A stretch of DNA of 64,000 nucleotides from contig JADJGA010000003.1 of assembly GCA_016708265.1 (NCBI GenBank), forward strand, positions 776,017 to 840,016, given 5' to 3'. Source of the stretch: Saprospiraceae bacterium. Lineage in GTDB: Bacteria; Bacteroidota; Bacteroidia; Chitinophagales; Saprospiraceae. Within the stretch, counting starts at the first letter, position 1, and every line of letters begins with the position of its first letter. A model generated the notes under the pieces. It was not told where the DNA came from and did not search any database. It saw only the letters and a list, made by a program, of their open reading frames with translations. The position numbers and the translations under genes are program-made. This document shows, piece after piece, positions 7,350-52,214 of this stretch.

Positions 7350-7395
7350 TGCAGCCGTGACGCAAAAAACTAATCCAAAATGTACTTTTAAGACC
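7350..7395. repeat. Truncated copy of the intergenic repeat family (palindrome-proximal part only)
   Basis: ccgtgacgcaaaaaactaatccaaaatgtactttt aligns with ccgtgacgcactacgcttttccaaaatacaatttt in the full copies. Confidence 0.5.
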
Positions 7396-10052: not shown

Positions 10053-11663
10053 CTACCTTCCCTTCACAAACTTCCCACTCCGCATTCTCCCCCCATCATC
10101 AACCCTCGACACAATATAAACCCCGGGGCTGAAATCATGCAACTGCACTATATAGGTATGATCTTTCAGATTGCCCGACCATTTTCTGATTGCGTTGCCT
10201 TTGATATCAGCAATTGTATATTTTGATTCTCCGCCTTTGTCATCATAAATAAATAGGACATCTGAAGATGGATTGGGATAGATGAGAAGTTCATTTTGTG
10301 ATGTTTCTTCTGTGACACTCACTGTATCACCATTCTGACAGCCGGGTACGAGGCAGCCGTACTGATCGACCTTGAGGAGCCAGGTTGGAGCCCAACCTAT
10401 GGAATCATCTGGCATAGGTGCAAATCTGAGAGTGCCATACATATAATATCCTCCATCAGGAGAATATATGATATCATTGAGTTCATGATTTGGTGATTGT
10501 TCCGGATTGCTGACCAGGCTATATGACCTTAACCACTGTCTTTCTCCATCTTCATTTATTTTTTCCAGTATGCCTACTGTCATCAAGGCTATTCCGTTTT
10601 GCCACAATGAATCTATTTCTTTTTCTGTCAGGTTGTAGGCATAATTCACCTGGTATCCTGCTAGTAAATATCCATCTTGCTGCTGTGTCTCAATGATATT
10701 TGTTGATTTATAGTAATAGTCAATTTCAAAATCCAGACTCCAGGGTTTTTCCCAAATTTGTACAAAGTTTTTATTAAGTTTAAATACTCGTAGTCTTATT
10801 TTAGGATAAAAGTTATTTGGATCGGTTTTTTGATAGTGTTTACCATAATGAGAAGTGCATATATATTCCCCAAGCTTTGTCTTAAATAATTTAAATATAG
10901 GACCTCTCATACTATCAGTCCTGTGAACAATTTTAAAATTGCCTGCTAGATCAACCTCATAAATTATTCCTTCGATATTTCTCTTTATATATTGTCCAAT
11001 TATGAAGGGAGGATCTAAATATCCTGTACCCACTAAAAAACTGCTTCCTGTCCAATGCAAAAATGTCGGACTGTCAGATATATCTTTCTTGCCGAATATC
11101 ACATATTTTACACTATCTGTTTTGATGTTTATAATACATATCTGAGAATCTGCATATTGTGAATTCAGTGATTCCTGAATGGTCAATAAGACGGCATATA
11201 TGCTATCATTTATTTTGATCATGTCATGTAAAAATGCTGTGTCATCAGTTTGACTTATAAAAGGAATTTTTTTTAATATTTCTCCAGTCCCTATTCTATA
11301 AATCATCAGGTAACCGTTGGCATTTTTATTGCCATTACTATCAATACAAACCAATAAGGAGTCATTTTGAACAAAAGCATTATTAGTTTGATTATAAACA
11401 TTTAAGCGCTGAGGCTCTATATCAATATATCTTTTAAGGAAATTTCCATTTAAGTCAATTTTCGACATAAATACAGCATAGTAGTCAAAAGTATCATGAT
11501 CCACACCATTGCCTAAACATAGTAAGGTATCATGAAATAAAATAATCGGCCCTGACTGGTTTATATGTTTCATTATATCAATACCTTTATTGAATGTCGT
11601 TTGTGATACCAGGAAAATATTTATACTAAAAAATAAAATAAATAACAGAAATAAATTTTTCAT
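10053..11663 (-). CDS. Secreted beta-propeller-like protein with T9SS C-terminal sorting domain (family B)
   Basis: Signal peptide; C-terminus LIYPNPSSDVLFIY...GVYIVSRV...KFVKGR is a canonical T9SS CTD. Confidence 0.7.
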   Translation of the reverse strand: MKNLFLLFILFFSINIFLVSQTTFNKGIDIMKHINQSGPIILFHDTLLCLGNGVDHDTFDYYAVFMSKIDLNGNFLKRYIDIEPQRLNVYNQTNNAFVQNDSLLVCIDSNGNKNANGYLMIYRIGTGEILKKIPFISQTDDTAFLHDMIKINDSIYAVLLTIQESLNSQYADSQICIINIKTDSVKYVIFGKKDISDSPTFLHWTGSSFLVGTGYLDPPFIIGQYIKRNIEGIIYEVDLAGNFKIVHRTDSMRGPIFKLFKTKLGEYICTSHYGKHYQKTDPNNFYPKIRLRVFKLNKNFVQIWEKPWSLDFEIDYYYKSTNIIETQQQDGYLLAGYQVNYAYNLTEKEIDSLWQNGIALMTVGILEKINEDGERQWLRSYSLVSNPEQSPNHELNDIIYSPDGGYYMYGTLRFAPMPDDSIGWAPTWLLKVDQYGCLVPGCQNGDTVSVTEETSQNELLIYPNPSSDVLFIYDDKGGESKYTIADIKGNAIRKWSGNLKDHTYIVQLHDFSPGVYIVSRVDDGGRMRSGKFVKGR

Positions 11664-36697: not shown

Positions 36698-36860
36698 TCC
36701 CGACGATAAATGTCGGGACGTGCGAAATTAAACTCGCAAATCCAATTAAGCTTTAAAATCAACAAGTTATATTGTTTTCAACTACGGAAATTATACCTAC
36801 AAGGTTTCGGTAAAATTTCCTGCTTTCTCCTGCTCAGACTCCCGACGATAAATGTCGGGA
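36698..36860. repeat. Two identical 21-bp hairpins (tcccgacgataaatgtcggga) bracketing ~120 bp; REP/MITE-like
   Basis: Identical palindromes at 36698-36718 and 36840-36860. Confidence 0.7.
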
Positions 36861-36907
36861 TCGCACAGTCCTGAACTATAATTTTTAAAAAACTGCTATA
36901 AAATTAT

Positions 36908-38305
36908 CTATTTCTTGATATTCGGAAGCTGTAATCCGTAGCCCTTCTTCTTATCTTCGATTTTAAGTAAAAAGGCAAATAAGATCGCCAATATACCAAA
37001 TCCTGTAAAGATGATCATAGGAAGAGTATAATTGTAAGTATTGACGGTCTGATTATCAACAGTCACCTGACCGGTAATGCAATAGGTATTCAAAACCCAG
37101 CCTATCAATGCAGGAACTCCCATTAAACCCCAGTTCTGAACCCAGAATATTAATGAATATGCAGTACCGAGTTGCTTCTCAGGGATGATCTTCGGAACCG
37201 ATGGCCACATAGCAGAAGGTACAAGTGAAAACCCTATTCCCAGCAAAATTATTAAAAATATTGCAATGATCCAATGGCTAAGAAAAGGAATTGAAAACAT
37301 AGCATGAACAAAAACAATTATAAATGAACCGATTATCATTATTGTTGCTCCCTTGCCTTTTCTGTCATACAGATTTCCAAAGAAAGGAGTAAGAAATATA
37401 GTACCGAAAGGAAGCAAAGCCGGTATCAATCCTGCCCAATCTTCATCAACACCAAATTTTTGAACCATCAGATCCGTAGCATATTTTAAAAATGGAAATA
37501 CTGCAGAGTAAAACAAAACGCATAAAATCGCAATATACCACCAGCCTTTGTTTGTTATTATATTCAATATGTCTTTGATCTTAAATGCTTCTTCATCATC
37601 GACTACTTCATTATCTTTATCATAAGCTGCCTGTGATGCATCAAGTTTTTTATCCTGAAAAGTATAAAAGAAGAATGAAATCAATCCGATACATGCCATG
37701 ATCAGTCCAAACAGTAAAGGCATCGAAACAGTTCCGAAATATTTAGCAATCGGAAGTGATGTACCTATTGCCAGTCCTGTACCAATTCTTGCAGTTGCCA
37801 TTTCAAGACCCATTGCAAGAGCCATTTCTTTTCCTTTGAACCACTTTACTATGATTTTAGAAACCGTGATCCCCGCTACCTCAACACCAACCCCAAAAAT
37901 AGCAAATCCAATTCCAGCTATAAAAACCTGAGCTTTTGATTCAAACAATAACAGATCCCAGACCTGTCCGTCAAGACTATGAGTAGAAACAGCCCAATAT
38001 TTGATTGCAATCCCAACTACCATAAGTCCGGTTGCCATCATTCCTGTAAATCTTACACCCATTTTGTCCAGAATGATCCCACCTATGATCAAAAAGAATA
38101 AAAATACATTGAACCAGCCATAAGCACTGGTAAAAAAGCCATATTCTTCGCTGTTCCAGGATAGTTGCTGTTCAAGAAGTCCTTTCAGCGGTGCCATAAC
38201 ATCAGCCAGATAATAGCCACATAACATGGTAAATGCTACCACTGCCAATGCTGTCCAGCGTGCTACTGGTGAGTCACGCAAGGTTTGATTAATTTTTTCA
38301 GTCAT
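36908..38305 (-). CDS. MFS transporter
   Basis: 12-TM topology with two 6-TM halves separated by a charged loop; 465 aa. Confidence 0.7.
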   Translation of the reverse strand: MTEKINQTLRDSPVARWTALAVVAFTMLCGYYLADVMAPLKGLLEQQLSWNSEEYGFFTSAYGWFNVFLFFLIIGGIILDKMGVRFTGMMATGLMVVGIAIKYWAVSTHSLDGQVWDLLLFESKAQVFIAGIGFAIFGVGVEVAGITVSKIIVKWFKGKEMALAMGLEMATARIGTGLAIGTSLPIAKYFGTVSMPLLFGLIMACIGLISFFFYTFQDKKLDASQAAYDKDNEVVDDEEAFKIKDILNIITNKGWWYIAILCVLFYSAVFPFLKYATDLMVQKFGVDEDWAGLIPALLPFGTIFLTPFFGNLYDRKGKGATIMIIGSFIIVFVHAMFSIPFLSHWIIAIFLIILLGIGFSLVPSAMWPSVPKIIPEKQLGTAYSLIFWVQNWGLMGVPALIGWVLNTYCITGQVTVDNQTVNTYNYTLPMIIFTGFGILAILFAFLLKIEDKKKGYGLQLPNIKK

Positions 38306-38522
38306 AAATTTATTTTTTAAAAAATATAATAATACAAATACAACCTACAAATTTAAGGATATTTTGATAAGAAGGATATAATTATTGAAAAAATCACACA
38401 GTATAACTGCAATTGGCAATTTTTGAACCGCTATCCCTTAACTCTATCAAAAGTGTATTAATATGTTTATGAGGGATTTTTTTGACGTACTATGGTCAAA
38501 ACAGGGAAATATAGGGAAAATG

Positions 38523-38596
38523 TGGAGCTAACGGGATTCGAACCCGTGACCCCTTGACTGCCAGTCAAGTACTCTAGCCAACTGAGCTATAGCCCC
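38523..38596 (-). tRNA. tRNA-Ala (anticodon GGC)
   Basis: Reverse complement ggggctatagctcagttggctagagta cttga-ctGGCag-tcaag ...ggttcgaatcc...tagctcca; G3:U70 alanine identity pair present; T-loop GTTCGAATC. Confidence 0.9.
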
Positions 38597-38646
38597 ATGA
38601 GAGTGCAAAGGTAATAAAAAAAATTTTTAAAGAAAATATTTGAGGT

Positions 38647-39273
38647 TTACTCTGCTACTACAAATACAATTTTATTGTTCTGTCCGTTAACGCTACTGCC
38701 CAAAATCACTTTATTGTCGATATCTACTCCCTTTACCTTCATATATGCAAGAATAGCTTCCATCCTCCTCTGTGACAATATCCCGCTCCTGTAATCAGGT
38801 TCATTGACAAAACCAAACAATTTAATTGCAGAAATACTTCCTGAATTCAATTGATAGATCATATCATTAAGTATCTGGATCTGGGGTGGGTCAATATATG
38901 CAGTACCACCTTTGAATTTTATTTCAAGATTGGAATTGGATTTGAAATTTAAATTTTCTTTTGGGGCTACACTAATTACCATACTGTTATCCGCAATTAT
39001 ATTTGACTCTGCCAATGAACCATCTTCAGACTTCACATTGGATATATCAATCAGACTATCCTGTGTTTCATAGGCTTTAAGATAATCAGGCAGAACATTT
39101 AATTTGGCAAGGATGTCACCATTCCTGTTCATGAGAACTTCTGTAGGAACAGCGTCTATGAGGATCACTTTTTTGAAAACATTGTTTTTTACTTTGTCAC
39201 TATTGGTTTGCGAATAACCAAAAGTACATATATTAAGTAAAAGCAATACAACTAATACTTTTTTCATATTCAT
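38647..39273 (-). CDS. Hypothetical secreted/lipoprotein with a C-terminal OmpA-like segment
   Basis: Signal peptide MNMKKVLVVLLLLNICTFGYSQ; C-terminal LSQRRMEAILAYMKVKGV resembles the OmpA_C family. Confidence 0.45.
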   Translation of the reverse strand: MNMKKVLVVLLLLNICTFGYSQTNSDKVKNNVFKKVILIDAVPTEVLMNRNGDILAKLNVLPDYLKAYETQDSLIDISNVKSEDGSLAESNIIADNSMVISVAPKENLNFKSNSNLEIKFKGGTAYIDPPQIQILNDMIYQLNSGSISAIKLFGFVNEPDYRSGILSQRRMEAILAYMKVKGVDIDNKVILGSSVNGQNNKIVFVVAE

Positions 39274-39419
39274 GGGTTTTATAATATGAATATCAAAAAT
39301 TGTACCAAATTTAAAAAGTACTCATTTTGATATACTCAACTTACAAACGATTTAATATCTGTAATAGTTCCATGATGGTGAAAAAAAGTCAAACTAACCG
39401 GAAAAAAAATGAAAACCAA

Positions 39420-40334
39420 TCAGTTTTTTTTGACCAATCCCTTTTCTTCCAGGTCCCTTATCACTTTATCCATAACTCCGTTTATGAATTCTTTGCTTTT
39501 GTCGGTGGAATATTCCTTTGAGAGTTCTACATATTCATTTAATGTCACATTGCAAGGGATCGATTCAAAATATAAAACTTCAGCAAGGCTCATTTTAATA
39601 AATATCATATCGACATTTGCAATACGTTCTTTATCCCATTTCAATAGATTTGGAATAACATACTTTTCGAGTTCATCATTTATAGTAAGACATTTTTTTA
39701 ACAGTTTTTCCCCCAGATCAATGATCGTTTCGTCAGTAGGATAATAAGGTTCAATAAAATCTCCTTCAAAATCATTTCTTTTAAGAATTTTTTTGACTGT
39801 ACCTATTACCACCGATTTTTCACTGCTCCACTGATAGTACCTGTCATCGACCAGTTCAACAAAAACTTCACTCGCTCTGAGGTACCTGTACATTTCGAGG
39901 AGAATCTCTTCATCGTCTGTCTGAGATTTACGGTTGTGCCAGTAGGCAATATAAAGTTCGGTTTCAGAAAAACTCTTATACAATGTCCTGATGACATCAG
40001 GATCAATGAATTCACTGAATTTCAACGTTTCAAATCTTTGTTTGAGATCCTTGTTGTTTACAAGTCCTTTTATGATAGTGTTGTGATAAAGTGTGCTTTT
40101 AAATGATTTGTCATCATCTGTGGGGAGATACTTTGATACACGTTTGGTTTCGTCTTCTACTGAAACCTTAGTCATTTCAACTATTAGATATAAATTGAGT
40201 AGAAATAGCTCTATCGTACCCTTGACTGAATCATGATAAAACTTTAAAACTTCTTCATTCTTTAATTCTTTATCTCGGCTTTGAGAATAAAGAGCCTGCA
40301 TCACCTTTACTCTGATACTTCTTCTACTTAGCAT
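39420..40334 (-). CDS. nusB: Transcription antitermination factor NusB (long Bacteroidota-type form)
   Basis: N-terminus MLSRRSIRVKVMQALY and C-terminal NusB-domain motifs (DRIANVDMIFIKMSLAEVLYF...). Confidence 0.8.
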   Translation of the reverse strand: MLSRRSIRVKVMQALYSQSRDKELKNEEVLKFYHDSVKGTIELFLLNLYLIVEMTKVSVEDETKRVSKYLPTDDDKSFKSTLYHNTIIKGLVNNKDLKQRFETLKFSEFIDPDVIRTLYKSFSETELYIAYWHNRKSQTDDEEILLEMYRYLRASEVFVELVDDRYYQWSSEKSVVIGTVKKILKRNDFEGDFIEPYYPTDETIIDLGEKLLKKCLTINDELEKYVIPNLLKWDKERIANVDMIFIKMSLAEVLYFESIPCNVTLNEYVELSKEYSTDKSKEFINGVMDKVIRDLEEKGLVKKN

Positions 40335-40585
40335 GGGATTCCATTCTTTTTTACACTATGCAAAGAAAGTGTATTTTTTAAAACAAAACAAACAATGTCT
40401 GTATTTATTAACAATATTATACATATATCAATATTAAACGATCAAAAACGAATAAAGTGCCACATATTTCAAAAAAAAATTATTTACAAATTAAACACAA
40501 TTTTTTAAAATTAATTTTGTTTTTATAATACATTTCGTATTTTTGCGAAATATAAAAATGAATTTTATTTATAATTATTAATCAA

Positions 40586-40837
40586 TTGAAAATGGAAATT
40601 AAAATTTTAGGAACCGGATGTCAGAAATGCAAAACTCTGGAAAAAATGACACAGGAAGTCGTTGAAGAAAACAATTTTAATGCAACGATTACCAAAGTAG
40701 AAGATATAATGCTGATCATGAATTATGGCATTCTTTCAACTCCCGGCCTGGTAATAAATGAAAAAGTCGCTTTAAGTGGAAGATTACCTTCTAAAGATGA
40801 AATCAAAAAACATATTGAAAAATACGGCAATGAGTAG
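40586..40837 (+). CDS. Thioredoxin-family small redox protein (redox-active disulfide protein 2 / Thioredoxin_3)
   Basis: 78-83 aa; KILGTGCQKCKTLE CxxC motif. Confidence 0.8.
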   Translation: MKMEIKILGTGCQKCKTLEKMTQEVVEENNFNATITKVEDIMLIMNYGILSTPGLVINEKVALSGRLPSKDEIKKHIEKYGNE

Positions 40838-41138
40838 TTTCAGCAAATATGAGCCTGGCATTGAAGAGATTGCTGTAATAGCAAAGGCAATTCAGCATCC
40901 TGTGAGAGTGTATATCTTAAAGAAGCTCTCAAAGATGAATACATGTTGTTATAGTGGAAACCTTGTGGATGAATTGCCAATTAGTCGCAGCACCCTTTCT
41001 CAGCATTTGAAGGAATTAAAGTACGCAGGTCTGATACAAGGTGAAATAGAAGCACCATATATAAAATACTGCCTTAACAGGGAAAACTGGGAAAAAGCAA
41101 AGGAATTATTTTCAGAATTTTTTAATCTTTCAAAATAA
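40830..41138 (+). CDS. arsR: ArsR/SmtB-family transcriptional repressor
   Basis: HTH LSQHLKELKYAGLI; ATG at 40830 overlaps the upstream stop (ATGAGTAG); ORF track's longer N-terminus rejected. Confidence 0.8.
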   Translation: MSSFSKYEPGIEEIAVIAKAIQHPVRVYILKKLSKMNTCCYSGNLVDELPISRSTLSQHLKELKYAGLIQGEIEAPYIKYCLNRENWEKAKELFSEFFNLSK

Positions 41139-41150
41139 AAATAGTAGAAT

Positions 41151-41640
41151 ATGAAAAATCTATCAACAAAAATCGTCATTACAGTTGCAATTTTCTTTTA
41201 TGGAGGTCTGGCATTAAATGCATATATTGATGCAAACAATTCAAATCCCTTACTTAATGAAAATCCAATACAAAATTTTTCCAATGAAAATGTAAAGCAT
41301 GCTAAACCAATACTTTACATCTACAATTTTCATTCTACCAGGAGATGCATTTCCTGTGTTGCAATTGAGAATACAACTACTCAGGCATTGGAAAAGTATT
41401 TTAAAAAGAAGTTGAAGAAGGCAGGATCAAAAGATTTATTATCAATGTAGAGGAAAAGGAAAATAAAAAACTGGTTGAAAAATATGAGGTATATGGAACA
41501 GCACTGTATCTGGTAAGATCATTCAAGGGTAAAGAAAACACAATAGACCTTACTGCAGAGGGATTCAAATATGCTAAAAACAAGCCGGAAAAATTATTGG
41601 AAGTACTGAAGGAAAAAATTTCAGAGAATTTAAAATAAGC
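41151..41640 (+). pseudogene. Secreted CxxC-motif protein of unknown family, copy 1 (frameshifted near 41440)
   Basis: Signal peptide; YIYNFHSTRRCISCVAIE motif; continues out of frame as ...KLVEKYEVYGTALYLV... paralleling copy 2. Confidence 0.45.
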
Positions 41641-41664
41641 TGATAATTAAAAAAAGATAAACCT

Positions 41665-42101
41665 ATGAATAAAAGTATTTTCATTATGCTGATATTGTTT
41701 TTATACAATTATGCATCTTTTAGTCAGACAGTTGGTGATACAATAATTTCAAATAATCCCCAAAATCTTAAGCTAAAAGTTTATTATTTTCACATTACAG
41801 ACAGATGTTCTGCATGCTATTCAATTGAAGAGAATCTCAGAGCTACTCTTTTCACTAATTTCAAAAAGGAAATAAAAAAGGGATCGTCGATCTTCATATC
41901 CTCAACTGTGAATTGCCGGAAAACCAAAAGCTGGTAAAAAAATATACTGCTTATGGCTCAACTTTGGTAGTGACAGGATATAAAAATGGCAAAGAACTCG
42001 AAACTGAAGAATTGTCAGCCTGGGCTTTTAAAAAATCAGGGAACAAAAAGGTTTTTGTTAAAGAGCTTAGGAAAAAACTAAATGATCATCTGAGATCATA
42101 A
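41665..42101 (+). pseudogene. Secreted CxxC-motif protein of unknown family, copy 2 (frameshifted near 41925)
   Basis: Signal peptide; YYFHITDRCSACYSIEE; second part KLVKKYTAYGSTLVV in overlapping ORF 41913..42101. Confidence 0.45.
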
Positions 42102-42131
42102 TTAAAATTACAATTTTTAAGGTTAAAAATT

Positions 42132-42833
42132 ATGGAATATTTACAAAATTTGCTTGATAATACAAGCATGCCATTGTTTTCTGCATTCCTGCTTGGGTTG
42201 ATGACAGCTATCAGTCCATGTCCTCTTGCGACAAATATAACTGCAATAGCCTACATCGGTAAAAATATCGAGAATAAGAGAAAAGTATTTATTAATGGTT
42301 TGTTTTATACGCTGGGAAGAGCTATCAGTTATGTTACCATAGGTATTATTCTATTTTTCGGAGCCAGTAAGTTTCATATTGCCAGTTTTTTTCAATCAAA
42401 CGGAGAAAAATTCCTGGGTCCTTTGCTTATCATTATCGGTATTTTTATGCTGGGTGTTTTCAAATTCAATTTCCCGGGTATTGGCAAAATAACTGATAAA
42501 TTTAATCAGATGAAGACAAACCGGCTAAGTTCACTTTTGATGGGGATGCTTTTTGCACTTGCGTTTTGTCCATATAGTGGAGTTTTGTATTTTGGCATGC
42601 TCATTCCTATGACTATTTCAAGTACATCAGGACTTTTCCTGCCTTTTGTATTTGCAATTGCAACAGGCCTCCCGGTTATTGTCTTTGCATATCTGATTGC
42701 ATTTACCTTTTCGGAAGTTGGCAGTTTTTTCAACAAACTCAAAACATTTGAAAAATGGTTCAGAAAAATAGTTGCATTTGTATTCATTGCTGTTGGGATA
42801 TATTATATGTATATTTTTTTCTTTTCAAATTAA
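42132..42833 (+). CDS. CcdA/DsbD_2-like thiol:disulfide interchange membrane protein
   Basis: 6 TM; AISPCPLATN-type Cys-Pro signature of the DsbD/CcdA transmembrane electron-transfer family. Confidence 0.7.
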   Translation: MEYLQNLLDNTSMPLFSAFLLGLMTAISPCPLATNITAIAYIGKNIENKRKVFINGLFYTLGRAISYVTIGIILFFGASKFHIASFFQSNGEKFLGPLLIIIGIFMLGVFKFNFPGIGKITDKFNQMKTNRLSSLLMGMLFALAFCPYSGVLYFGMLIPMTISSTSGLFLPFVFAIATGLPVIVFAYLIAFTFSEVGSFFNKLKTFEKWFRKIVAFVFIAVGIYYMYIFFFSN

Positions 42834-42844
42834 TTTAGGTCAAC

Positions 42845-43264
42845 ATGGAAAACAGACTTAAAGTTCTTATCCTTTGTACAGGAAATTCATGCAGGAGCCA
42901 GATGGCACACGGATTTTTACAATCTTTTAATAGAAATCTTGATGTTCATTCTGCCGGCACTAAAGCATCAGGTTATATTAATGAAAAAGCGATAGTTGTG
43001 ATGAAAGAAGTCGGAATTGATATCAGTACTCATACATCTGATCCTGTTGAAAAGTATCTGAATGAAGAATGGGATTATGTGATCACTGTGTGTGGAGGTG
43101 CTAATGAAGAATGTCCAGTTTTCCATGGAATAGTTAAGAACAGGCTTCACATGGGATTTGATGACCCCAGCCATGCAATTGGAACTGAAGAATTTATCTG
43201 GAGTGAATTCCGGAGAGTAAGAGATAAGATTTGGAAGGAATTTGCTAATTTGCTAATTTGCTAA
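42845..43264 (+). CDS. arsC: Arsenate reductase, LMW-PTP family (thioredoxin-coupled ArsC)
   Basis: KVLILCTGNSCRSQMA P-loop (CX5R) at the N-terminus; 139 aa. Confidence 0.85.
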   Translation: MENRLKVLILCTGNSCRSQMAHGFLQSFNRNLDVHSAGTKASGYINEKAIVVMKEVGIDISTHTSDPVEKYLNEEWDYVITVCGGANEECPVFHGIVKNRLHMGFDDPSHAIGTEEFIWSEFRRVRDKIWKEFANLLIC

Positions 43265-43365
43265 TTTGAAAATGTACTAATATGAGAATTAGATAATGTG
43301 TTAATTTGGTATTTTGCTAATTAACTATTTCTCACATTTGCTAATTTGTTAATTAATATAAGGTA
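43245..43365. repeat. AATTTGCTAATT tandem array and relatives (left flank of a four-helix-bundle gene)
   Basis: gaatttgctaatttgctaatttgctaatttgaaaatg...tttctcacatttgctaatttgttaatt. Confidence 0.85.
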
Positions 43366-43368
43366 AAT

Positions 43369-43656
43369 ATGTTGGATGAAAAGGGAAATGTGATTGTTGA
43401 AAAAAGCTTTGGATTTGCTTTACGAATTATTGAGTTTACAGAATTACTTGAAAGTCAGAGAAAATATGTTATTGCAAATCAATTATTGAAAAGTGGGACT
43501 TCAATTGGTGCAAATATCAGAGAAGCACAGAATGCTGAAAGCAAAGCTGATTTCATACACAAAATGAAAATTGCTGGTAAAGAAGCCGATGAAACTGAAT
43601 ATTGGTTACTACTATGTAAATTTTCAAAAACTCATCCATTCGATGAAAACATATAG
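43369..43656 (+). CDS. Four-helix-bundle protein (TIGR02436; '23S rRNA intervening-sequence protein' family)
   Basis: Family-typical FGFALRII.F...ANQLLKSGTSIGANI.EAQ...S..DFIHKM.IA.KEA.ET.YWL. Confidence 0.8.
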   Translation: MLDEKGNVIVEKSFGFALRIIEFTELLESQRKYVIANQLLKSGTSIGANIREAQNAESKADFIHKMKIAGKEADETEYWLLLCKFSKTHPFDENI

Positions 43657-43689
43657 AATGATTTAAGTGAAATAAAGAAAATACTTAAT

Positions 43690-43885
43690 AAAATAATCGC
43701 ATCTTCAAAAAAGAGAATGTGAAAATGTGAGAATTCGAGAATGTGAGAATTCGAGAATGATTGAATGTGTCCCGAAAGCTTTCGGGATCGAGAATGTGAC
43801 AATGTGGTAATTTGCTAATTAATAAATTCTCACATTTACAAATTAATTTGCTAATTAACTAATTTGCTAATTAACTAAATAAAAA
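43690..43885. repeat. GAGAATGTGAGAATTC / AATTTGCTAATTAAC repeat arrays plus TCCCGAAAGCTTTCGGGA hairpin (right flank of a four-helix-bundle gene)
   Basis: Read directly; hairpin at 43770-43787. Confidence 0.85.
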
Positions 43886-43888
43886 ACT

Positions 43889-44925
43889 ATGCCATCTCAA
43901 AAAAAATTAAAATTTCTGGACAGATATCTTACTTTGTGGATATTCTTAGCCATGTTTGCAGGAGTATTTTTGGGCTGGTTAAGTCCTGACATTGCCGGAT
44001 TCTGGAATAAACTTTCATCTGGTACTACAAATATACCGATTGCAATCGGTTTGATAGTGATGATGTATCCACCACTCGCAAAAGTCAAATATGAAGAACT
44101 TGGAGATGTTTTTAGAAACACTAAAATCCTGGGATTATCTCTGGTACAGAACTGGATAATCGGACCAATTCTTATGTTTCTCCTTGCTATTGTATTTTTA
44201 CGTTTTAATGTAGATTACATGTATGGCCTGATTCTTATCGGGTTGGCCCGGTGCATTGCAATGGTAATAGTTTGGAATGATCTTGCTAAAGGTGACACAG
44301 AATATGCTGCCGGACTTGTAGCATTTAATTCAATATTTCAGGTTTTGTTTTTTTCTGTTTATGCTTACATTTTTATTGCTGTTTTGCCCGGTTGGTTTGG
44401 ATTGCCTGTAAATGATGTGGTTGCAAATATTACAATCGGACAGATAGCTGAGAGTGTTTTTATTTATCTGGGCATTCCCTTTATAGCAGGATTTTGACAA
44501 GATATTTATTGGTTAAAGCAAAAGGAAAGGATTGGTATAATAAAAAATTCATTCCTGCAATCAGTCCGCTTACTCTATATGCATTGCTTTTCACAATATT
44601 CGTGATGTTCTCACTCAAAGGTGAACTCATAGTAAAAATACCATTTGATGTTATCAGAATTGCTATTCCTCTTATAATTTATTTTGTATGTATGTTTGTA
44701 TTATCTTTCTTATGAGTAAAAGATTCGGGGCGAATTACAAACAATCAACAACTCTGTCTTTACAGCTGCCAGCAATAATTTCGAACTTGCAATAGCGGTG
44801 GCAATTTCAGTTTTGGCATTAATTCAGGTGAAGCATTTACTGCTGTGATCGGCCCTTTGGTTGAGGTGCCTGTGATGATAGCTTTGGTCAGTCTTGCATT
44901 TTGGTTTAAGAGAAAGCTGTTTTAA
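43889..44925 (+). pseudogene. acr3: ACR3-family arsenite efflux transporter, split into three frames (shifts near 44495 and 44715)
   Basis: N-terminus [13 protein letters not shown]...[14 protein letters not shown] and C-terminus ...[26 protein letters not shown] are ACR3 hallmarks; ORFs 43889..44497, 44494..44715 and the 44716-44925 frame are contiguous. Confidence 0.7.
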
Positions 44926-44942
44926 TGTGATAATTTGAAAAT

Positions 44943-45318
44943 TTGAAAATGTGCCAATGTGTCATTGAGATAATGTGCCAATTTGAAAATTTGAAAATTA
45001 TAAAAATAATTGAGTTTACAGAAACACTTGAAAATCAAAGAAAATATGTTCTTGCAAATCAATTATTGAAAAGTGGGACTTCAATAGGTGCAAATATCAG
45101 AGGAGCACAGAATGCCGAAAGCAAAGCTGATTTCATACATAAAATGAAAATTGCAGCAAAAGAAGGAGATGAAACTGAATAGTGGTTATTACTATTCAAG
45201 TTTTCAAAAGTACTTCTATTCGATGAAAGCATCCTGAATGAATTGAGTGAAATAAACAAAATACTAAATAAAATAATCGTATCATCAAAAAGAGAATTTG
45301 AGAATGTGTTAATTTGCT
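44943..45318 (+). pseudogene. Second, degenerate four-helix-bundle gene copy (in-frame stop after ...KEGDETE, then frame change)
   Basis: IEFTETLENQRKYVLANQLLKSGTSIGANIRGAQNAESKADFIHKMKIAAKEGDETE* ~90% identical to 43369..43656; flanked by the same repeat types (44925-45000, 45290-45375). Confidence 0.7.
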
Positions 45319-45376
45319 AATTATCACATTTGCTAATTTGCTAATTCTCACATTGGCTAATTAACTAATTAATAAT

Positions 45377-46720
45377 ATGGAAACAAAAAAAGAACTAAAA
45401 ATCCTGGTCTGGATTGGAATAATATTTGGTGCAGCATTCTTTTTACCTATTGAAAGTGCAAGGTTTAACACTGCAATTGCTGCAACATTGGATCTTGTGA
45501 AATGGTATGCCCGTGAGCATGTGATTTTATGCTTATTACCTGCTTTTTTTTTATTGCAGGGTTATCTCGGTATTTGTGAGTCAGGGTTCAATTTTGAGAT
45601 ACTTTGGAGCAAACGCAAAAAAATGGCTGGCTTACACAGTTGCTGCCAGCTCAGGAACTATTCTGGCAGTATGCAGTTGCACTATTTTGCCATTGTTCTC
45701 AAGCATTCACAAGAGAGGAGCAGGATTAGGACCGGCTATTGCCTTTCTATATTCTGGTCCCGCAATAAATATACTTGCCATCATTTTAACGGCAAGGATA
45801 CTCGGATTGCAAATGGGTATAGCCAGGACTATTGGTGCTGTATCTTTCAGTGTAATAATCGGATTGATAATGGCATTTATTTACCGAAAAGAAGAGAAAG
45901 TTAAAAAGGAAGAACAGATGAACATTCAGTTACCTGCTGAAAAGCGTCCGATGTGGCAAACTTCATTTCACTTTTTACACTTGTTTTGATACTTGTATTT
46001 GCAAACTGGGGAAAGCCATCCATAGATGACACATCAAGTGCCTGGTATTATTTATGGGCATACAAATGGTACATTACCGGATTTTTTTCATTGATGCTAG
46101 GCTTTTCACTAATTTATGTGCTAAAAATAAAATGGCAGTGGGTTTTGATGGCAGCATTTGCGACAATTGCTTCAGCGATATTAGCAACAAATCTTATTGA
46201 AAACTCAAAACTGGCACCACTTTTTCCGATGATGGTTGGGATAGCAGGTTTGAGTATTATTACGCTTTTGGACAAACAGGATGATGAAAACCGGGAATGG
46301 ACAATTTCAACCTGGGGTTTTGCAAAGCAAATTCTGCCATTGCTGGCAATAGGAGTTGTAACAGCCGGATTCCTGCTAGGATCAACACATGATGGTCAAA
46401 CAATTGCCGGAGTGATACCAAATGAATGGATACAATGGCTTGTGGGTGGCAATTCAGTTTTTTCCAATTTATTTGCATCAGTTGTCGGGGCATTTATGTA
46501 TTTTGCAACCCTTACAGAAGTTCCCATTCTTCAGGGGCTGATTGCATCCGGTATGGGAAAAGGCCCTGCTTTGGCTTTATTACTTGCCGGCCCATCACTT
46601 TCCCTTCCAAATATGCTTGTTATACAAAATGTTTTGGGAACTCAGAAGACAGTTGTTTATGTGACCCTGGTAGTGGCAATGGCAACAATTTCAGGTATGT
46701 TTACGGATGGCTATAACTAA
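45377..46720 (+). pseudogene. ArsP-like / DUF318 permease, split into three frames (shift at T10 run ~45545 and at T5 ~45985)
   Basis: Hallmark ILAVCSCTILPLF (TxCSC motif) in the second frame; N-terminal and C-terminal halves are permease-like TM segments in adjacent frames. Confidence 0.6.
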
Positions 46721-46735
46721 AAAGTTTAAACTTAT

Positions 46736-49700
46736 TTACTGATCTATAATTATACAATTTCCTTTGATTTCGACTGAACTTCCTTCGTTGCTAATTATTG
46801 CCGGATTTGTTGAACCCTGATAATTATGTAATACAACATTATCCAGTATCAGTTTGCCATTATTTTCAATAGCTCCTGCATTTAACCCTGCAGAATGGAT
46901 ATGAACACCCTTTAAAATCAGTCCATCACCGGTTGAGGGTGCTGAATTTTGGATAGTTGATCCTGTACCATTTGAGAATATGTGAATATTTTTAGTTAAA
47001 TCACTTTCAATCACAACATGTTTATTTATAACCAGATTTTCATTTCCGAGAAAAATGGTATCATTAATTATTGAAGAATTAAATCTGATAGTATCACCGG
47101 TAGTTGAACAATTGATTGCAGCATAAAAGAGACCTGCACCTTGAGGATATGTATTATCCACTTTCAGTCTGCAGAAATTATTTAAGCAGGTTTTAATTTT
47201 CCATGTTTGAAGACTGCCTCCATCATTGGTTGCAAGATCTTGGATCTGAAGTCTCCACTGACCTTTGACCTGTTGATTATTGAAAGTTAATAATGTATTG
47301 GAAGGTTTATATGTTCCCCCATCAGTAGGGGGGCACTGAATATCTAAATTTGCAGATTGGTCAAAATTGATATTGAAATTATCATTACTTCCACATTTCC
47401 GATCCATAATTACAACATTCACATTTGAGGGAGTATATAATGTAAATTTCAGATCACCTATATAAGTATGTAAACCAGTTAGACTTAAAACATCAAGGTC
47501 GTTTATTATTCCTAAGTCTGTAATGGGCAGATAAGAATTGACTGTTGGAGTTCCTGACGGTGAAATAATTACAGGAACATCTATACTATTATAAACAAAA
47601 CATGATTCAGTAACAAAGGAAAAAAATGCTGACCAATTGCCATTTCCGCAGGGTGAAATTGGTTTTACCCTCCAGTAAAATGTTGAAAGACCTTCAAGCA
47701 TCTGAGAGACTTGCAAGTTATTGGTAGCAGAATTCGTATTTACTATTAAAGTACTGAAGTCTGAAATTCGGGATATCTGTATTTCATAATATGCCGCACC
47801 TGCTATTGTATTCCAGCTTAATTGAGGTTTTATGCTTATGTTTGTCGAGTTATTGGCAGGAGATAATAGTGTAATAGATGACGCAGCAACATCAGTTACA
47901 ATCAAACTTAACATCGAATTCTTTACTGTAGATCCGGATGTACCAATGACCTGAATATTGTAAGAACCTGAAATGCCATCAATATTTGAAATTGTCAGGA
48001 TACTGCTTTGCCCTGGAATAACCGGATTATTTGAAAAACTATAGTTTACTCCCGAAGGTAGTCCTGCAACGCTTAAAGTTACCGGTTGACTGAATCCCAA
48101 AATACTCAATACATTCACAGCAATGTCTCCACTCTGTTGCGGACAAAGCATAAGTGACGCCGGATCTAATTGCAGACTAAATGATGGAACTCCTGTATTA
48201 ATTGTAATATTTGCATTATTGATATCAAAGAAAATATTGTCTACAGCTTTGACCATAATCCTTACAGTGGAGCTTATCCCTACAGGCACAACAATTTCCT
48301 GAGAACCATCATTAGGAGTTGAACTTAGCAAAGTTACAGGAAAGGTATTGCCACCATCATAAGATAAAAGTATACTTACATTTACAGTATTAATACCATT
48401 AGCTGTTGTTCCTGCTACATCCCATGTTATTGCTTTAGTTTCTCCTTCCAGCCAGGTGGTTGCATAATTTTGAGATGTTATTACAAATGGGCCTGCAGCA
48501 CTCCACAGTTGTAACAGTACGATTTATTTCCGAATTGCAACCCGCTACTCCTGTAAAATCGCGTGCAACGCCCCTGAAGTTCATGGTTCTTGAAACCGAT
48601 GGAAGAACCTGCCAGGTATTAGTTGTATTATTAAGAATATTCGCTAATGGAGGAAAATACCTCGATGGTGAAGTAGTGGCAAAAATACTTCGAAACATAG
48701 GACCTGTTGTATTGGTAGAAACTGGAGGCATTGTCTGAGCAGGAGAAACATAGCTGTTCATTTGATCCCAGTCATAGGAAATGGGATTGCCATCAGGATC
48801 TGAAGCATTTAACGTTAAAACAAATGGGGTAGATTTTGGTATAGTGTAATTTGGTTGTGCGGTAACATTTGGAGCATTATTTGCAAAAGTGCCAACTATT
48901 TGTGCACAACCATTTCCTGAACCTGTCAGAAATGTTTTAATTTCCTGGAGACTTTTGGCATGAAAATAAGGGTCGCTGTTAGTTTGAACATCGGGACTGC
49001 AAATTCCTGCATATGCCATAATTGTTGAAGCACTTCCTGGTTCCATAGCTGTACTGGCATTCCTGTTGCAGTTATTGTATTGCAAGTATGGTTTGCATTA
49101 AACTGATGTCCCATCTCATGAGTGACATAATCAATTACTAAAAGGATCTCCAACCGGGGTTGGAGAGCCTGTAAACCTCCTGCCTTATTATCAGTACTCA
49201 CAAACACACCCTAAATATGCAATTCCTCCATCTCCAGTACTAAAAACATGGCCAATATCGAAATTGGCTGATCCTATTACATTAGTACAATTATTTTGAT
49301 TTGCTGTTAAGTCACTAGATGAACCATCATTAGTATAACCATCGGTAGCAGCATTATAATAAAAAACCAGATTAGTATTTGCAATCAAAACAAGTCTTAC
49401 GGCAAGTTCTGATTCATATACTTCATTTACGCGATTAATAACTGTCACAACTGCAGACATCACAAGTCCTGATTGAGCAGAACTTGTAGCCCCAAAAAAA
49501 TTGCTGTATTCTCCAGTTGTTGCCTGAGCAAGCCTGTAACTCTTAACTGGCAATCCCCAATTCTTAGACATCATCGTTTTCCCTGGTTTGTCATTGAATC
49601 ATCATTGACAAAACATTCCCATCAACCTTTTTTGAATTCTTTTTTTGAATAAACAATTCTTATTTGTTTATCATCTCTTTGAAAATAATCAATATAATAT

Positions 49701-50149
49701 TTTCCTTCATCCAAAGAGGAAATGACAGCCCTGAACCCCTGCAAAGTATAATCTATTCTGATGCTTTTTAACTGATCTGAAATCGAAACACCATAAAATG
49801 TTCTTATATCGGGATATTGCAGAGCCAATTCAGGTTCCATCATATAGTATTCTACAACTTTGAATTTTTCAGTCTTGCCATCCGGCAATCCAACATTGAT
49901 TATCTGATCAGAATTTGCAACATCTTTCTCCGATTCTTTTGGCGAACTCCACAGAATAGTTTTCATCATTTCGTCATCAAAATTGTAAATGACATACTTT
50001 TCGGGAATGATATCCCTGATGCCTTTATTTTCAATCTGATCCAAAGAAACAACGTTCCATGATTGACTGAATAAAATAGAAAACTGAAAAAATGCCAGAA
50101 AAAACAGAAAAAATCTTTTACCCATAAAGTCCCATTTTAAAAAATGCAA
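46736..50149 (-). pseudogene. Secreted reprolysin-like (metzincin) zinc metalloprotease with FN3-like and proprotein-convertase P-domains. Fragmented into at least five ORFs (49622..50149, 49191..49574, 48926..49207, 48435..49085, 46736..48331)
   Basis: Signal peptide (MGKRFFLFFLAFFQFSILFSQ); HEMGHQFNANH zinc-binding HExxHxxxxxH; IMAYAGICS reprolysin_5-like segment; P-domain segment GDLKFTLYTPSNVNVVIMDRKCGSNDNF...WRLQIQD. Confidence 0.55.
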
Positions 50150-50355: not shown

Positions 50356-52214
50356 TCACCATCCTATCCCATAATCTTCTCCAAAATTGCTGGATCCACC
50401 CCAAAAACTGCCATGCTCCCTGTCAAAATAAATTGCATTTACAGGACCGCTGGTTTTTTCTCTGAAAGTTAGTTTGTATCCCATATTGCTAAGGTCTTTT
50501 CTTATCCATTTTGGGATTTGTTCGTTCAGGATCAATGAACCTATGAGTTTTTCGTGATCACCAAAACTTGAAAACATCTGGTTTGTGATAAAACCCGGAG
50601 CTTCACATGCTTCCTGTACTGTCATATTGAATTCAACCATGTTGAGGAAAAACTGGAGTAAAAGCTGATCCTGTTCATCTCCCCCCTGCTTTGCAAATGA
50701 AAGAAAAGGTTTACCGTCTTTAAGAGCAAGTGTCGGAGTTAAAGTTACCCTTGGACGCTTTCCCGGGGCAACAACATTGTAAGGATTTTCTTTTTCATCT
50801 AAAACAAAACTCTGCATTCTCTGACTCATCCCGATACCTGTATTGCCAGCAATACATGCCGGGATCCATCCCCCGCTCGGAGTCATTGAAACCACCCATC
50901 CATTTTCATCAGATGCTTCGACTGATGTGGTTCCTGCAGTGAAACTTTTTATATAATCCTCATCAAATTGGTCAAAATTGAAGCCTTGTTCATTATCAGA
51001 ATTATTAATCGATTTTTTAAAGGGATTTACCTTGTCTTCATAAGGATATGGGTCTCCGGGTTTGACTCCCGGGTCATTTTTGTCAAAATTGATAAGTTCA
51101 CTTCTTTCTTTTGCATATAGTTTTGAAAGCAGTCCTTTTATCGGTTCTTCAGGTGGAAAAGCAGGATCACCATAATAGAAATCACGGTCTGCAAAAGCCA
51201 GATTCATAGCCTGATAAAGAGTATGAATGTACCTGGTTGAATTGTATCCCATGCTTTTTAAATCAAAATTTTCAAGGATGTTGAGTATTTGTAGCATTAC
51301 CGGACCCTGAGACCATTGCTGAAGTTTATATACATCAATACCCTTATAATTTGACATAAGAGGCTCTTCAATTTTGACTTGCCATTCTTCCATATCTTTA
51401 AGAGTGATCAATCCTCCCTGTTCCTGACATCCCTTAACAAACTCCTGACCAATATCACCTTTATAAAACCTGTCATACGCTGCATAGATGGCTTCTTTCC
51501 TGGATTTACCTGTTTTAAGTGCATTTTGTTCTGCTTCAACCAGTTTTCTGAGTGTTGCAAGAAGATCTTTCTGAACAAATATTTCTCCCGGATAAGGTGC
51601 TTCACGGATTTGTCCTTCGTGAGGAAGAAAAACTTTTTTGAATAAGTCCATTCTTTGATCAGTTTCTTATCACGTTCTAGTGCGTTGGCAGTCTGAGCTT
51701 CTATAGGATAGCCTTCTGCCATTTCCAAAGCCGGAGTCAGAACTTCTTTTAAACTCATAGTGCCATATTCTGCAAGCATAACCATAAGTCCACCCGGAGT
51801 TCCCGGAGTAATTGCTGCAAGAGCGCCATATTGGGGAGGATATTTATATCCCTTATTCTTAAAGAATTCAGGTGTAGCTCCAGATGGTGCGACTCCCAGA
51901 GCATTTATTGCTATCACTTTTTTAGTGACTGGATTATAGATCAGGGCCTGGGTTTCACCACCCCAGCTCAAAACATCCCACATAGTGCAGGTAGCAGCCA
52001 GCATGGCACAGGAAGCATCCACAGCATTTCCACCTTTGGCAAAAATCATTGCTCCCGCTGTAGCTGCTAAAGGTTTCCCCGTAATGGCCATCCAATGCTT
52101 GCCATGAAGAGGTGGTTTTTGAGTCACGACAGGGAGTGTATTAAATGACTGGGTATAAACGTTGCTATTTACAATAACTAAAAAGCAGATCAAAAAAAAA
52201 TCCTTCATTTTCAA
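50356..52214 (-). pseudogene. ggt: Gamma-glutamyltranspeptidase, one frameshift at an A6 run (~51650)
   Basis: N-terminal part (51408..52214; signal peptide; GGNAVDASCAMLAA...) and C-terminal part (50356..51651; Thr nucleophile region SFTAGTTSVEASDENGWVVSMTPSGG...) are both GGT; the ORFs overlap in different frames. Confidence 0.8.

Follow-up and report, generated by a model that had tools for sequence, protein, structure and literature searches.

An ars operon of a Saprospiraceae bacterium with an arsE-arsF-arsG module that may form a thiol relay across the membrane

Arsenic resistance (ars) operons that contain the accessory module arsE-arsF-arsG are an already known kind of locus. The only experimental assignment for the module, attributed to Chen et al. 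in 2019, reportedly concerns trivalent roxarsone and nitarsone, whose nitro groups are reduced by ArsE and ArsF; ArsG is said to export the amine products. We analysed a 64,000-nucleotide stretch of DNA of a Saprospiraceae bacterium (GenBank assembly GCA_016708265.1, contig JADJGA010000003.1, positions 776,017 to 840,016 of the forward strand), hereafter referred to as the window. An original prediction, made from the letters of this DNA, had placed at positions 40586–46720 an arsenic island with a thiol-disulfide relay directed to the periplasm. Domains were assigned with Pfam and NCBIfam hidden Markov models, and frameshifted reading frames were stitched before NCBIfam scoring. All ars genes claimed for the + strand of this segment were found. 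Judged by sequence, the whole locus is with very little doubt a chromosomal, ArsR-controlled ars operon of an uncultured member of the Bacteroidota that contains the arsE-arsF-arsG module, and current NCBI models name every part of it.

The closest described arrangement dates from 2010, when a trio of genes for CcdA, thioredoxin (Trx) as well as redox-active-disulfide-protein-2 was reported in ars operons, mostly in company with arsC, and a possible transfer of electrons to the periplasm was discussed (PMC2963123). Novelty of the trio and of transmembrane electron flow in ars operons, which the original prediction had assumed, is therefore lost. The window contains the same redox-type genes inside an ars operon; export of the thioredoxin-like partner was not noted in the 2010 work, to which the survey presented here adds about 80 species, A- and B-type paralogs of ArsF and a candidate operator. 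In PMC9144182, ArsG is cited among organoarsenical efflux transporters, and ArsE and ArsF are cited as organoarsenical-resistance proteins, with reference to Chen, Zhang & Rosen 2019. The same cassette is named by RefSeq/PGAP in cultured Bacteroidota, namely in Fulvitalea axinellae pFA1 (ArsR-Trx-ArsF-ArsG-permease) and on a plasmid of Prevotella nigrescens F0103 (ArsF-ArsG-Trx-permease-ArsC-ACR3), where it lies beside relaxase and integrase genes. The module was said not to be part of the textbook ars system; it is in fact curated in NCBIfam and named ArsEFG in RefSeq.

The members of the module were identified by their NCBIfam scores. ArsE reaches 111.6 bits with TIGR00412, "MTH895/ArsE family thioredoxin-like protein" (cut-off 62), and ArsG 312.7 bits with the equivalog NF040495, aminobenzylarsenical efflux permease (cut-off 200), over profile positions 2–224 of 225. 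Two tandem CxxC proteins, A and B, score 99.7 and 82.6 bits after stitching with NF040494, the nitrophenyl compound nitroreductase subunit ArsF family (cut-off 60). They had been assigned to an unrecognised family, probably because ArsF has no Pfam model; indeed, neither protein was given a family by the Pfam search. The CxxC motifs quoted for them are present, YIYNFHSTRRCISC in gene A and VYYFHITDRCSAC in gene B, and both proteins have the signal-like N-termini that were claimed.

The order of genes, all on the + strand, is arsE-arsR-arsF(A)-arsF(B)-arsG, followed by arsC, acr3 and a gene for an ArsP_1-family permease. The intact arsE gene (40592–40837) encodes an 81-residue protein with a CQKC active-site motif (PF13192 Thioredoxin_3, E 1.3e-27). 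It overlaps by 8 nucleotides (nt) the intact arsR gene (40830–41138), whose product is a 102-residue ArsR/SmtB repressor (HTH_5, E 1.8e-10) that gives 50.2 bits with NCBIfam NF033788, below the cut-off of 55. Among ArsR homologs (n=89), C39 is kept in 81%, C40 in 88% and C81 in 100%. The arsF-A (41151–41638; 162 residues) and arsF-B (41665–42101; 145 residues) genes contain one frameshift each, while arsG (42132–42833) is intact and encodes a 233-residue DsbD_2/CcdA-like protein (PF13386, E 5.4e-23) with six predicted transmembrane (TM) segments. Next comes intact arsC (42845–43264), coding for a 139-residue arsenate reductase of LMW-PTP type (Pfam LMWPc, E 5.2e-18). The protein carries Cys11, Cys83 and Cys90 and scores 132.1 bits with TIGR02691 (pI258-type, Trx-coupled), under the cut-off of 174.3. 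The acr3 gene (43889–44925) has four frameshifts; its stitched product of about 346 residues gives 453.9 bits with TIGR00832, against a cut-off of 282.8. The permease gene (45377–46720) has two frameshifts and codes, after stitching, for about 447 residues with a CSC motif at residues 99–101; both pieces match PF03773 (E 9.2e-34 and 1.3e-26).

When compared with ArsEFG of Shewanella putrefaciens 200, the module is alike in that all three families score above NCBIfam cut-offs and the genes are adjacent in an ars operon with arsR. In the window, unlike in Shewanella, arsF is duplicated (A and B) and arsR stands between arsE and arsF. In the Bacteroidota proteins covered here, ArsF is by sequence clearly exported and ArsE cytoplasmic. 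The operon also has both genes of another known combination, the pair of Thioredoxin_3 protein and PF03773 permease that includes ArsP of Campylobacter jejuni, and in many relatives the PF03773 permease gene directly follows arsG or a second Thioredoxin_3 gene. The window permease differs from ArsP in being a long form of about 447 residues that passes the cut-off of no NCBIfam model, equivalogs included; its membership is at the level of the PF03773 family.

The genes from arsE through arsC are separated by −8, 12, 26, 30 and 11 nt. Scans of the window for σ70 promoters (33 promoter-like sites, 29 expected) and for terminators (5 terminator-like sites, 3.2 expected) were uninformative, and we turned to the promoter consensus of Bacteroidota, TTTG-N18-TATTTTTG. 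A match on the + strand at 40516–40545 is located in the divergent intergenic region between NusB and arsE, about 45 nt upstream of arsE. With 9 matches in the window and 4.1 expected, this match is weak on its own. Its −7 box is overlapped by a palindrome, ATTTCG-N8-CGAAAT (40532–40551), which occurs nowhere else in the window (0.02 expected). The palindrome was detected in 62 of 95 fetched loci, usually 40–60 nt upstream of arsE or arsR (for example, at 7390–7409 of contig L002, 7395–7414 of L004 and 7387–7406 of L007), and some loci (e.g. L083) have two or three copies of it, in front of downstream ars genes. No description of it was found in the literature accessible to the search. It is probably the operator to which ArsR would bind, and a candidate for this role across the family. 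Because the gaps do not exceed 30 nt and are preceded by one promoter and one conserved operator, the genes from arsE through arsC almost certainly belong to one predicted ArsR-controlled transcript. Co-transcription of the CxxC genes with ars genes, on which the original prediction depended, is thus favoured by the tight gaps and by a promoter and operator shared with arsR and arsC. For acr3 and the permease gene co-transcription with arsE-arsC is less certain, since two cassettes coding for PF05635 proteins intervene and leave gaps of 104 and 169 nt at the first and 451 nt between acr3 and the permease gene.

The survey of gene neighbourhoods proposed in the original prediction was carried out. 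A word-indexed search with an ArsF profile yielded 238 proteins. An exhaustive search yielded 3,894 clusters at 50% identity with E ≤1e-3, and 2,266 with E ≤1e-10. Finally, a species-level scan, with one genome per species, yielded 80 loci, nearly all from Bacteroidota, whose genes were identified with window proteins as tblastn queries. In 76 of the 80, ArsG comes next after ArsF on the same strand, most exceptions being at contig ends, and the median gap between the two genes is 12 nt. ArsE was found in 72 loci, as was ArsR. Other genes found were those for ArsC (40 loci), rhodanese (33), ACR3 (29), ArsP_1 (28) and an ArsM-type methyltransferase (19). When the count was restricted to loci in which arsG is followed by 5 kb or more of sequence (n=55), 37 had ArsC, ACR3 or ArsM, and 43 when ArsP_1 was included (67–78%). 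The association with ars genes anticipated for homologs of the CxxC proteins is thus recovered, and the gene contexts firmly support a tight link between the ArsF family and ars genes. Intact orthologs of every gene, in the same order and in the same chromosomal context, are present on contigs L002–L006 and L010–L011. The window lacks the rhodanese gene, and it also lacks the ArsM-type methyltransferase gene that is found in its closer relatives L002 and L003.

The survey bears on whether the module could be a generic envelope disulfide-reductase system, serving cytochrome c maturation or periplasmic protein repair, that merely lies beside ars genes. Matches of ArsG to both DsbD_TM and DsbD_2 of Pfam, as well as one homolog labelled 'thiol:disulfide interchange protein', would agree with such a system. 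It is nevertheless extremely improbable given an ArsR gene in 72 of 80 loci, a conserved operator in 62 of 95 and ArsC, ACR3, ArsM or ArsP_1 in 67–78% of loci with enough flanking sequence. In addition, ArsF matches no Pfam model of DsbA, TlpA or Redoxin. The CxxC proteins are therefore not DsbA/TlpA-type oxidoreductases foreign to ars contexts, an objection that the original prediction had itself foreseen.

Tandem arsF genes are the commonest state among the 80 loci, 43 of which have two copies and four of which have three. The A and B types represent two old subfamilies that are only 34% identical to each other, and they occur in the order A-then-B in 42 loci. Intact 145-residue B-type orthologs of the window protein exist (e.g. 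P0012–P0028). The third ArsF paralog of one three-copy operon (L007, GCA_040766215.1, 8881–9291) is divergent and has a differing active site, with CGCKARVC in place of RCxxC.

An export-signal-like N-terminus, basic and then hydrophobic, is present in 134 of the 136 ArsF open reading frames of the surveyed loci. A-type proteins mostly have a lipobox cysteine. B-type proteins mostly have a signal sequence that ends in small-small-Gln (xxQ), the signal-peptidase I pattern typical of Bacteroidota, and that of the window arsF-B product ends in ASFS|Q. A-type ArsF would thus be tethered to the membrane, as a lipoprotein in most species, and B-type ArsF would be soluble. Structure prediction, proposed in the original prediction for the CxxC proteins, was carried out for ArsF-A with AlphaFold2 and an alignment of 51 sequences. 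The model has pLDDT >95 for residues 51–162 and shows a thioredoxin fold (β-α-β-α-β-β-α) in which helix 1 has Cys66-x-x-Cys69 at its N-terminus. Structure matches of the model are to thioredoxin-fold proteins, with no ArsC/Spx structure among the matches listed. The residues invariant in the alignment are F60, H61, R65, C66, C69, E73, G91, N99, G116 and L153.

Two family assignments of ArsF were considered and rejected. Membership in the DsbA, TlpA or Redoxin families is contradicted by the lack of any match to Pfam Thioredoxin, Redoxin, AhpC-TSA and DSBA up to E 10 and of a conserved cis-proline. A flavin nitroreductase is contradicted by the thioredoxin fold of the model. Neither Pfam nor structure matches revealed a flavin or nitroreductase domain in ArsE, ArsF or ArsG.

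ArsE resembles MTH895 (PDB 1ILO, E 1e-13), and among its homologs (n=81) C10, C13 and the cis-proline P51 are all 100% conserved. Since the CxxC begins at residue 10, there is no room for a signal peptide. In ArsG homologs (n=83), Cys30, within an SPCP motif, and Cys146, within FCPY, are both 99% conserved. The hydropathy profile of ArsG shows six hydrophobic segments, and loops rich in Lys and Arg are located at 35–56, 119–132 and 201–209; the positive-inside pattern predicts an N-out/C-out, CcdA-like topology. ArsG also matches Pfam DsbD_TM (E 4.4e-11). It is not DsbD proper (27.9 bits with NF001419, cut-off 330). When ArsG was aligned with CcdA (5VKV), residues 12–223 were covered and the SPC motif of TM1 was in register, in a pairwise alignment that is weak (E 0.018). 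Signal peptides, cysteine pairs and hydropathy therefore give good support to the topology claimed in the original prediction, in which a cytoplasmic thioredoxin is combined with a membrane protein resembling CcdA and with exported acceptors of the CxxC type.

The module can be compared to CcdA/DsbD relays, in which electrons pass from thioredoxin to CcdA and on to ResA, CcmG or TlpA. Common to both are a cytoplasmic donor of the thioredoxin type, a membrane protein with six TM segments, one Cys-Pro motif each in TM1 and TM4 and a (predicted) N-out/C-out orientation, and an exported thioredoxin-fold CxxC acceptor, here encoded adjacent to ArsG. There are also differences: ArsG belongs to DsbD_2 (PF13386) and its TM4 cysteine appears, in the weak alignment, shifted by two residues, while the acceptor ArsF has no cis-proline and matches no DsbA, TlpA or Redoxin model of Pfam. 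For the window module, the likeness lies in the gene context and in the predicted topology of donor and acceptor.

In the mechanism that we propose, ArsE, a small cytoplasmic thioredoxin, would hand reducing equivalents to the Cys30/Cys146 pair of ArsG, ArsG would maintain both exported ArsF proteins with a reduced CxxC, and reduced ArsF would act on an arsenical outside the cytoplasm. The rest of the operon is canonical, with ArsC reducing As(V) and ACR3 exporting As(III), and with the PF03773 permease as a probable exporter of trivalent organoarsenicals. The layout of such a relay, as originally proposed, is seen in an ArsE without signal peptide, an ArsG with a 99% conserved cysteine pair and an exported ArsF with an invariant CxxC. 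We regard the case for the electron-relay step from ArsE through ArsG to ArsF as evenly balanced. Taken jointly, an ArsEFG-containing ars operon and an ArsE-ArsG-ArsF relay appear to be the best explanation of the locus, which we favour with moderate confidence.

Several points weigh against the relay. Thiol chemistry is not an obvious route to six-electron reduction of a nitro group. The alignment of 51 ArsF sequences contains no invariant or near-invariant proline, i.e. the cis-proline of thiol-disulfide oxidoreductases is absent, and the invariant Gly116 lies just before β3, where the cis-proline loop would fall. In ArsG, the TM4 cysteine is two residues off the catalytic cysteine of CcdA (FCPY vs TPCIG) in the weak alignment (E 0.018) mentioned above, and there is a weak Pfam match to CadD. 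The LysE transporter superfamily includes the families of DsbD type. Distant DsbD_2 relatives on Bacillus plasmids are found in copper-resistance contexts, adjoin CopC or copper-binding proteins and have no thioredoxin partner. The conserved membrane cysteines, given these copper-context relatives and the CadD match, could therefore bind As(III) instead of carrying electrons. Finally, four genes are frameshifted in the assembly, so function in the source organism is unproven.

Some of these points also speak for the published model taken literally. ArsE and ArsF would then be nitroreductase subunits for trivalent roxarsone and nitarsone, ArsG would be a pure efflux permease for aromatic amino-arsenicals with cysteines that bind As(III), and no electrons would cross the membrane. 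The NCBIfam names of ArsF and ArsG rest on the work of Chen et al., and PMC9144182 places ArsG among organoarsenical efflux transporters. A permease also agrees with the TM4 cysteine being out of register with CcdA, with the weak CadD match and with the copper-context DsbD_2 relatives lacking a thioredoxin partner. However, ArsE lacks a signal peptide, and of 136 ArsF proteins 134 are predicted to be exported or lipid-anchored. Because the two proteins would lie on opposite sides of the membrane in these organisms, they could not form a soluble ArsE-ArsF heterodimer in one compartment. Flavin and nitroreductase domains are also absent from both ArsE and ArsF, the fold of ArsF being plainly that of a thioredoxin. 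Moreover, a family of 3,894 clusters at 50% identity, with A and B paralogs 34% identical, must be far older than synthetic nitroaromatic arsenicals, and for this reason nitroreduction cannot be its ancestral role. We therefore consider the literal form of the published model unlikely.

The same conserved cysteine pairs and the same topology would also suit a bucket brigade, in which a trivalent arsenical or organoarsenical is passed by thiol ligand exchange from the CxxC of ArsE in the cytoplasm to the cysteine pair of ArsG and, once across the membrane, on to the CxxC of ArsF in the periplasm. ArsE and ArsF would be chaperones comparable to ArsD or CopZ/CusF. It is established chemistry that As(III) is strongly bound by vicinal dithiols, and such a scheme makes room both for the reported efflux role of ArsG and for the export of ArsF. 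The absence of a cis-proline from ArsF and the invariant His61, Arg65 and Glu73 beside its CxxC suit a small-molecule site. On the other hand, the bucket brigade leaves the reported reduction of nitro groups unexplained, and thioredoxin-fold CxxC proteins that flank a CcdA-type protein are usually redox partners. It appears to us quite improbable, more so than the literal nitroreductase model.

Returning to the thiol relay, we tentatively suggest that ArsEFG is directed to the periplasm and that its ancestral job may be to reduce, capture or pass on natural arsenicals outside the cytoplasm, the nitroreductase and permease names reflecting a secondary activity on synthetic feed additives. This possibility fits better than a cytoplasmic ArsE-ArsF enzyme because ArsF is exported, ArsE is cytoplasmic, the cysteine pairs are conserved and the family is old and broad. 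With its 3,894 clusters at 50% identity, the ArsF family is too old and widespread to have originated with feed additives of the 20th century. For annotation the locus is of little consequence, being a routine ars operon of Bacteroidota. What interest remains lies in the clash between the names, nitroreductase subunit and efflux permease, and the exported thioredoxin-fold ArsF, cytoplasmic ArsE and CcdA-like ArsG of about 80 species. Whether electrons or arsenicals pass through ArsG bears on extracytoplasmic handling of arsenic by anaerobic Bacteroidota, including Prevotella of the gut and mouth, and the answer would either put right or bear out an annotation that has spread widely.

Fused forms of ArsF were also encountered. 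They include P0192, P0214, P0148, P0152, P0162 and P0195, several of which are ArsF-ArsF tandems. P0192 (297 residues) is a rhodanese-ArsF fusion and a lipoprotein, in which a Cys-rich linker (CCPDPNSKDCNPDGTC) connects an N-terminal rhodanese to the ArsF domain at the C-terminus. The fusions seen in the best 150 representatives were all of the ArsF-ArsF or rhodanese-ArsF kind; none joined ArsF to DsbD or Thioredoxin_3, which would have been Rosetta-stone evidence. A small cytoplasmic rhodanese of 135–145 residues is often encoded after arsG or arsC (33 of the 80 loci, L014–L093, and also at 10143–10571 of L002). The idea that this operon-linked rhodanese is an exported arsenate reductase fed by ArsF was rejected: the 33 rhodaneses have no signal peptide and mostly no CX5R loop, and a rhodanese is exported just in the rare fusion P0192.

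Two features of the locus were absent from the original prediction, namely frameshifts in four genes and two inserted PF05635 cassettes. As assembled, none of arsF-A, arsF-B, acr3 and the permease gene is a single open reading frame, with one, one, four and two frameshifts, respectively. The arsF lesions were compared with contig L010 (98.9% identity over 5,078 bp). Both are single-base homopolymer deletions: at about 41403 in arsF-A there is A5 in the window and A6 in L010, and at about 41880 in arsF-B there is G3 in the window and G4 in L010. The acr3 frameshifts at about 44492, 44706, 44759 and 44811 and the permease frameshifts at about 45551–45561 and 45972 are mostly one-base changes in T-runs. 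The stitching is validated by intact homologs of equal length: for the arsF-A product there are intact 162-residue homologs with up to 96% identity at 100% query coverage, and the permease is 92–97% identical in amino acid sequence to its intact 446-residue ortholog from L002.

In all, at least 14 frameshifts are clustered at 41.4–52.2 kb. The cluster includes the second PF05635 copy, a gene for a reprolysin-type protease (46736–50149; four or more frameshifts) and one for a γ-glutamyl-transpeptidase (50356–52214). The remainder of the window, about 53 kb, has one frameshift, in a 203-codon gene at about 33.1 kb. Homopolymer density was considered as the cause of this clustering and does not account for it. 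The uneven distribution, left unexplained by homopolymer density, and the in-frame stops of substitution type in both PF05635 copies are what one would expect if the island were decaying in the source genome, with genuine frameshifts and stops and a module that is non-functional there. Against such decay, most lesions are single-base changes of homopolymer length, mainly deletions, and the cluster extends into two unrelated neighbouring core genes, those of the protease and the γ-glutamyl-transpeptidase. The stitched proteins are 92–97% identical to orthologs although the DNA is just ~80–83% identical, and they thus show no sign of relaxed selection. No lesion affects arsE, arsR, arsG or arsC. 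In addition, the island varies between strains, and in regions of this type consensus calling from a mixed population degrades. Real decay thus seems unlikely, and the frameshifts are probably a local artefact of assembly.

Variation between strains was evident when window positions 36848–41923 were aligned with the near-identical contig L010. Core genes that flank the island (MFS, a 208-codon gene and NusB) show 1.4–4.4 substitutions per kb, whereas the promoter region shows none. From the start of arsE the rate switches to 38 substitutions per kb in arsE-arsR, 22 in arsF-A and 39 in arsF-B. This pattern indicates that the ars island is a strain-variable segment that underwent allelic replacement or recombination between strains.

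The PF05635 genes (23S_rRNA_IVP, a four-helix-bundle family) are located on the + strand at 43369–43719 (cassette 1, with an in-frame TAA at 43654–43656) and 45000–45290 (cassette 2, also with an in-frame stop), and are 88% identical over 287 nt. Each is bordered on both sides by repeat arrays with an 8-nt period (AATTTGCT, AATGTGAG and variants), at 43223–43361 and 43692–43895 for cassette 1 and at 44916–45014 and 45287–45377 for cassette 2. The 16-mer AATTTGCTAATTTGCT has 11 near-matches (0.3 expected), all around the cassettes (43223–43895 and 44916–45377). Among relatives, L002, L005 and L011 have one cassette each, and L004 has none. The PF05635 gene with its repeats looks like a small mobile cassette, and the insertions probably lie outside ars function. 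The fully syntenic contig L004 (GCA_050258615.1, JBLMZC010000003.1) has the NCBI source label 'Deltaproteobacteria bacterium', which may be a binning or taxonomy error, since both its gene order and every other relative indicate Bacteroidota.

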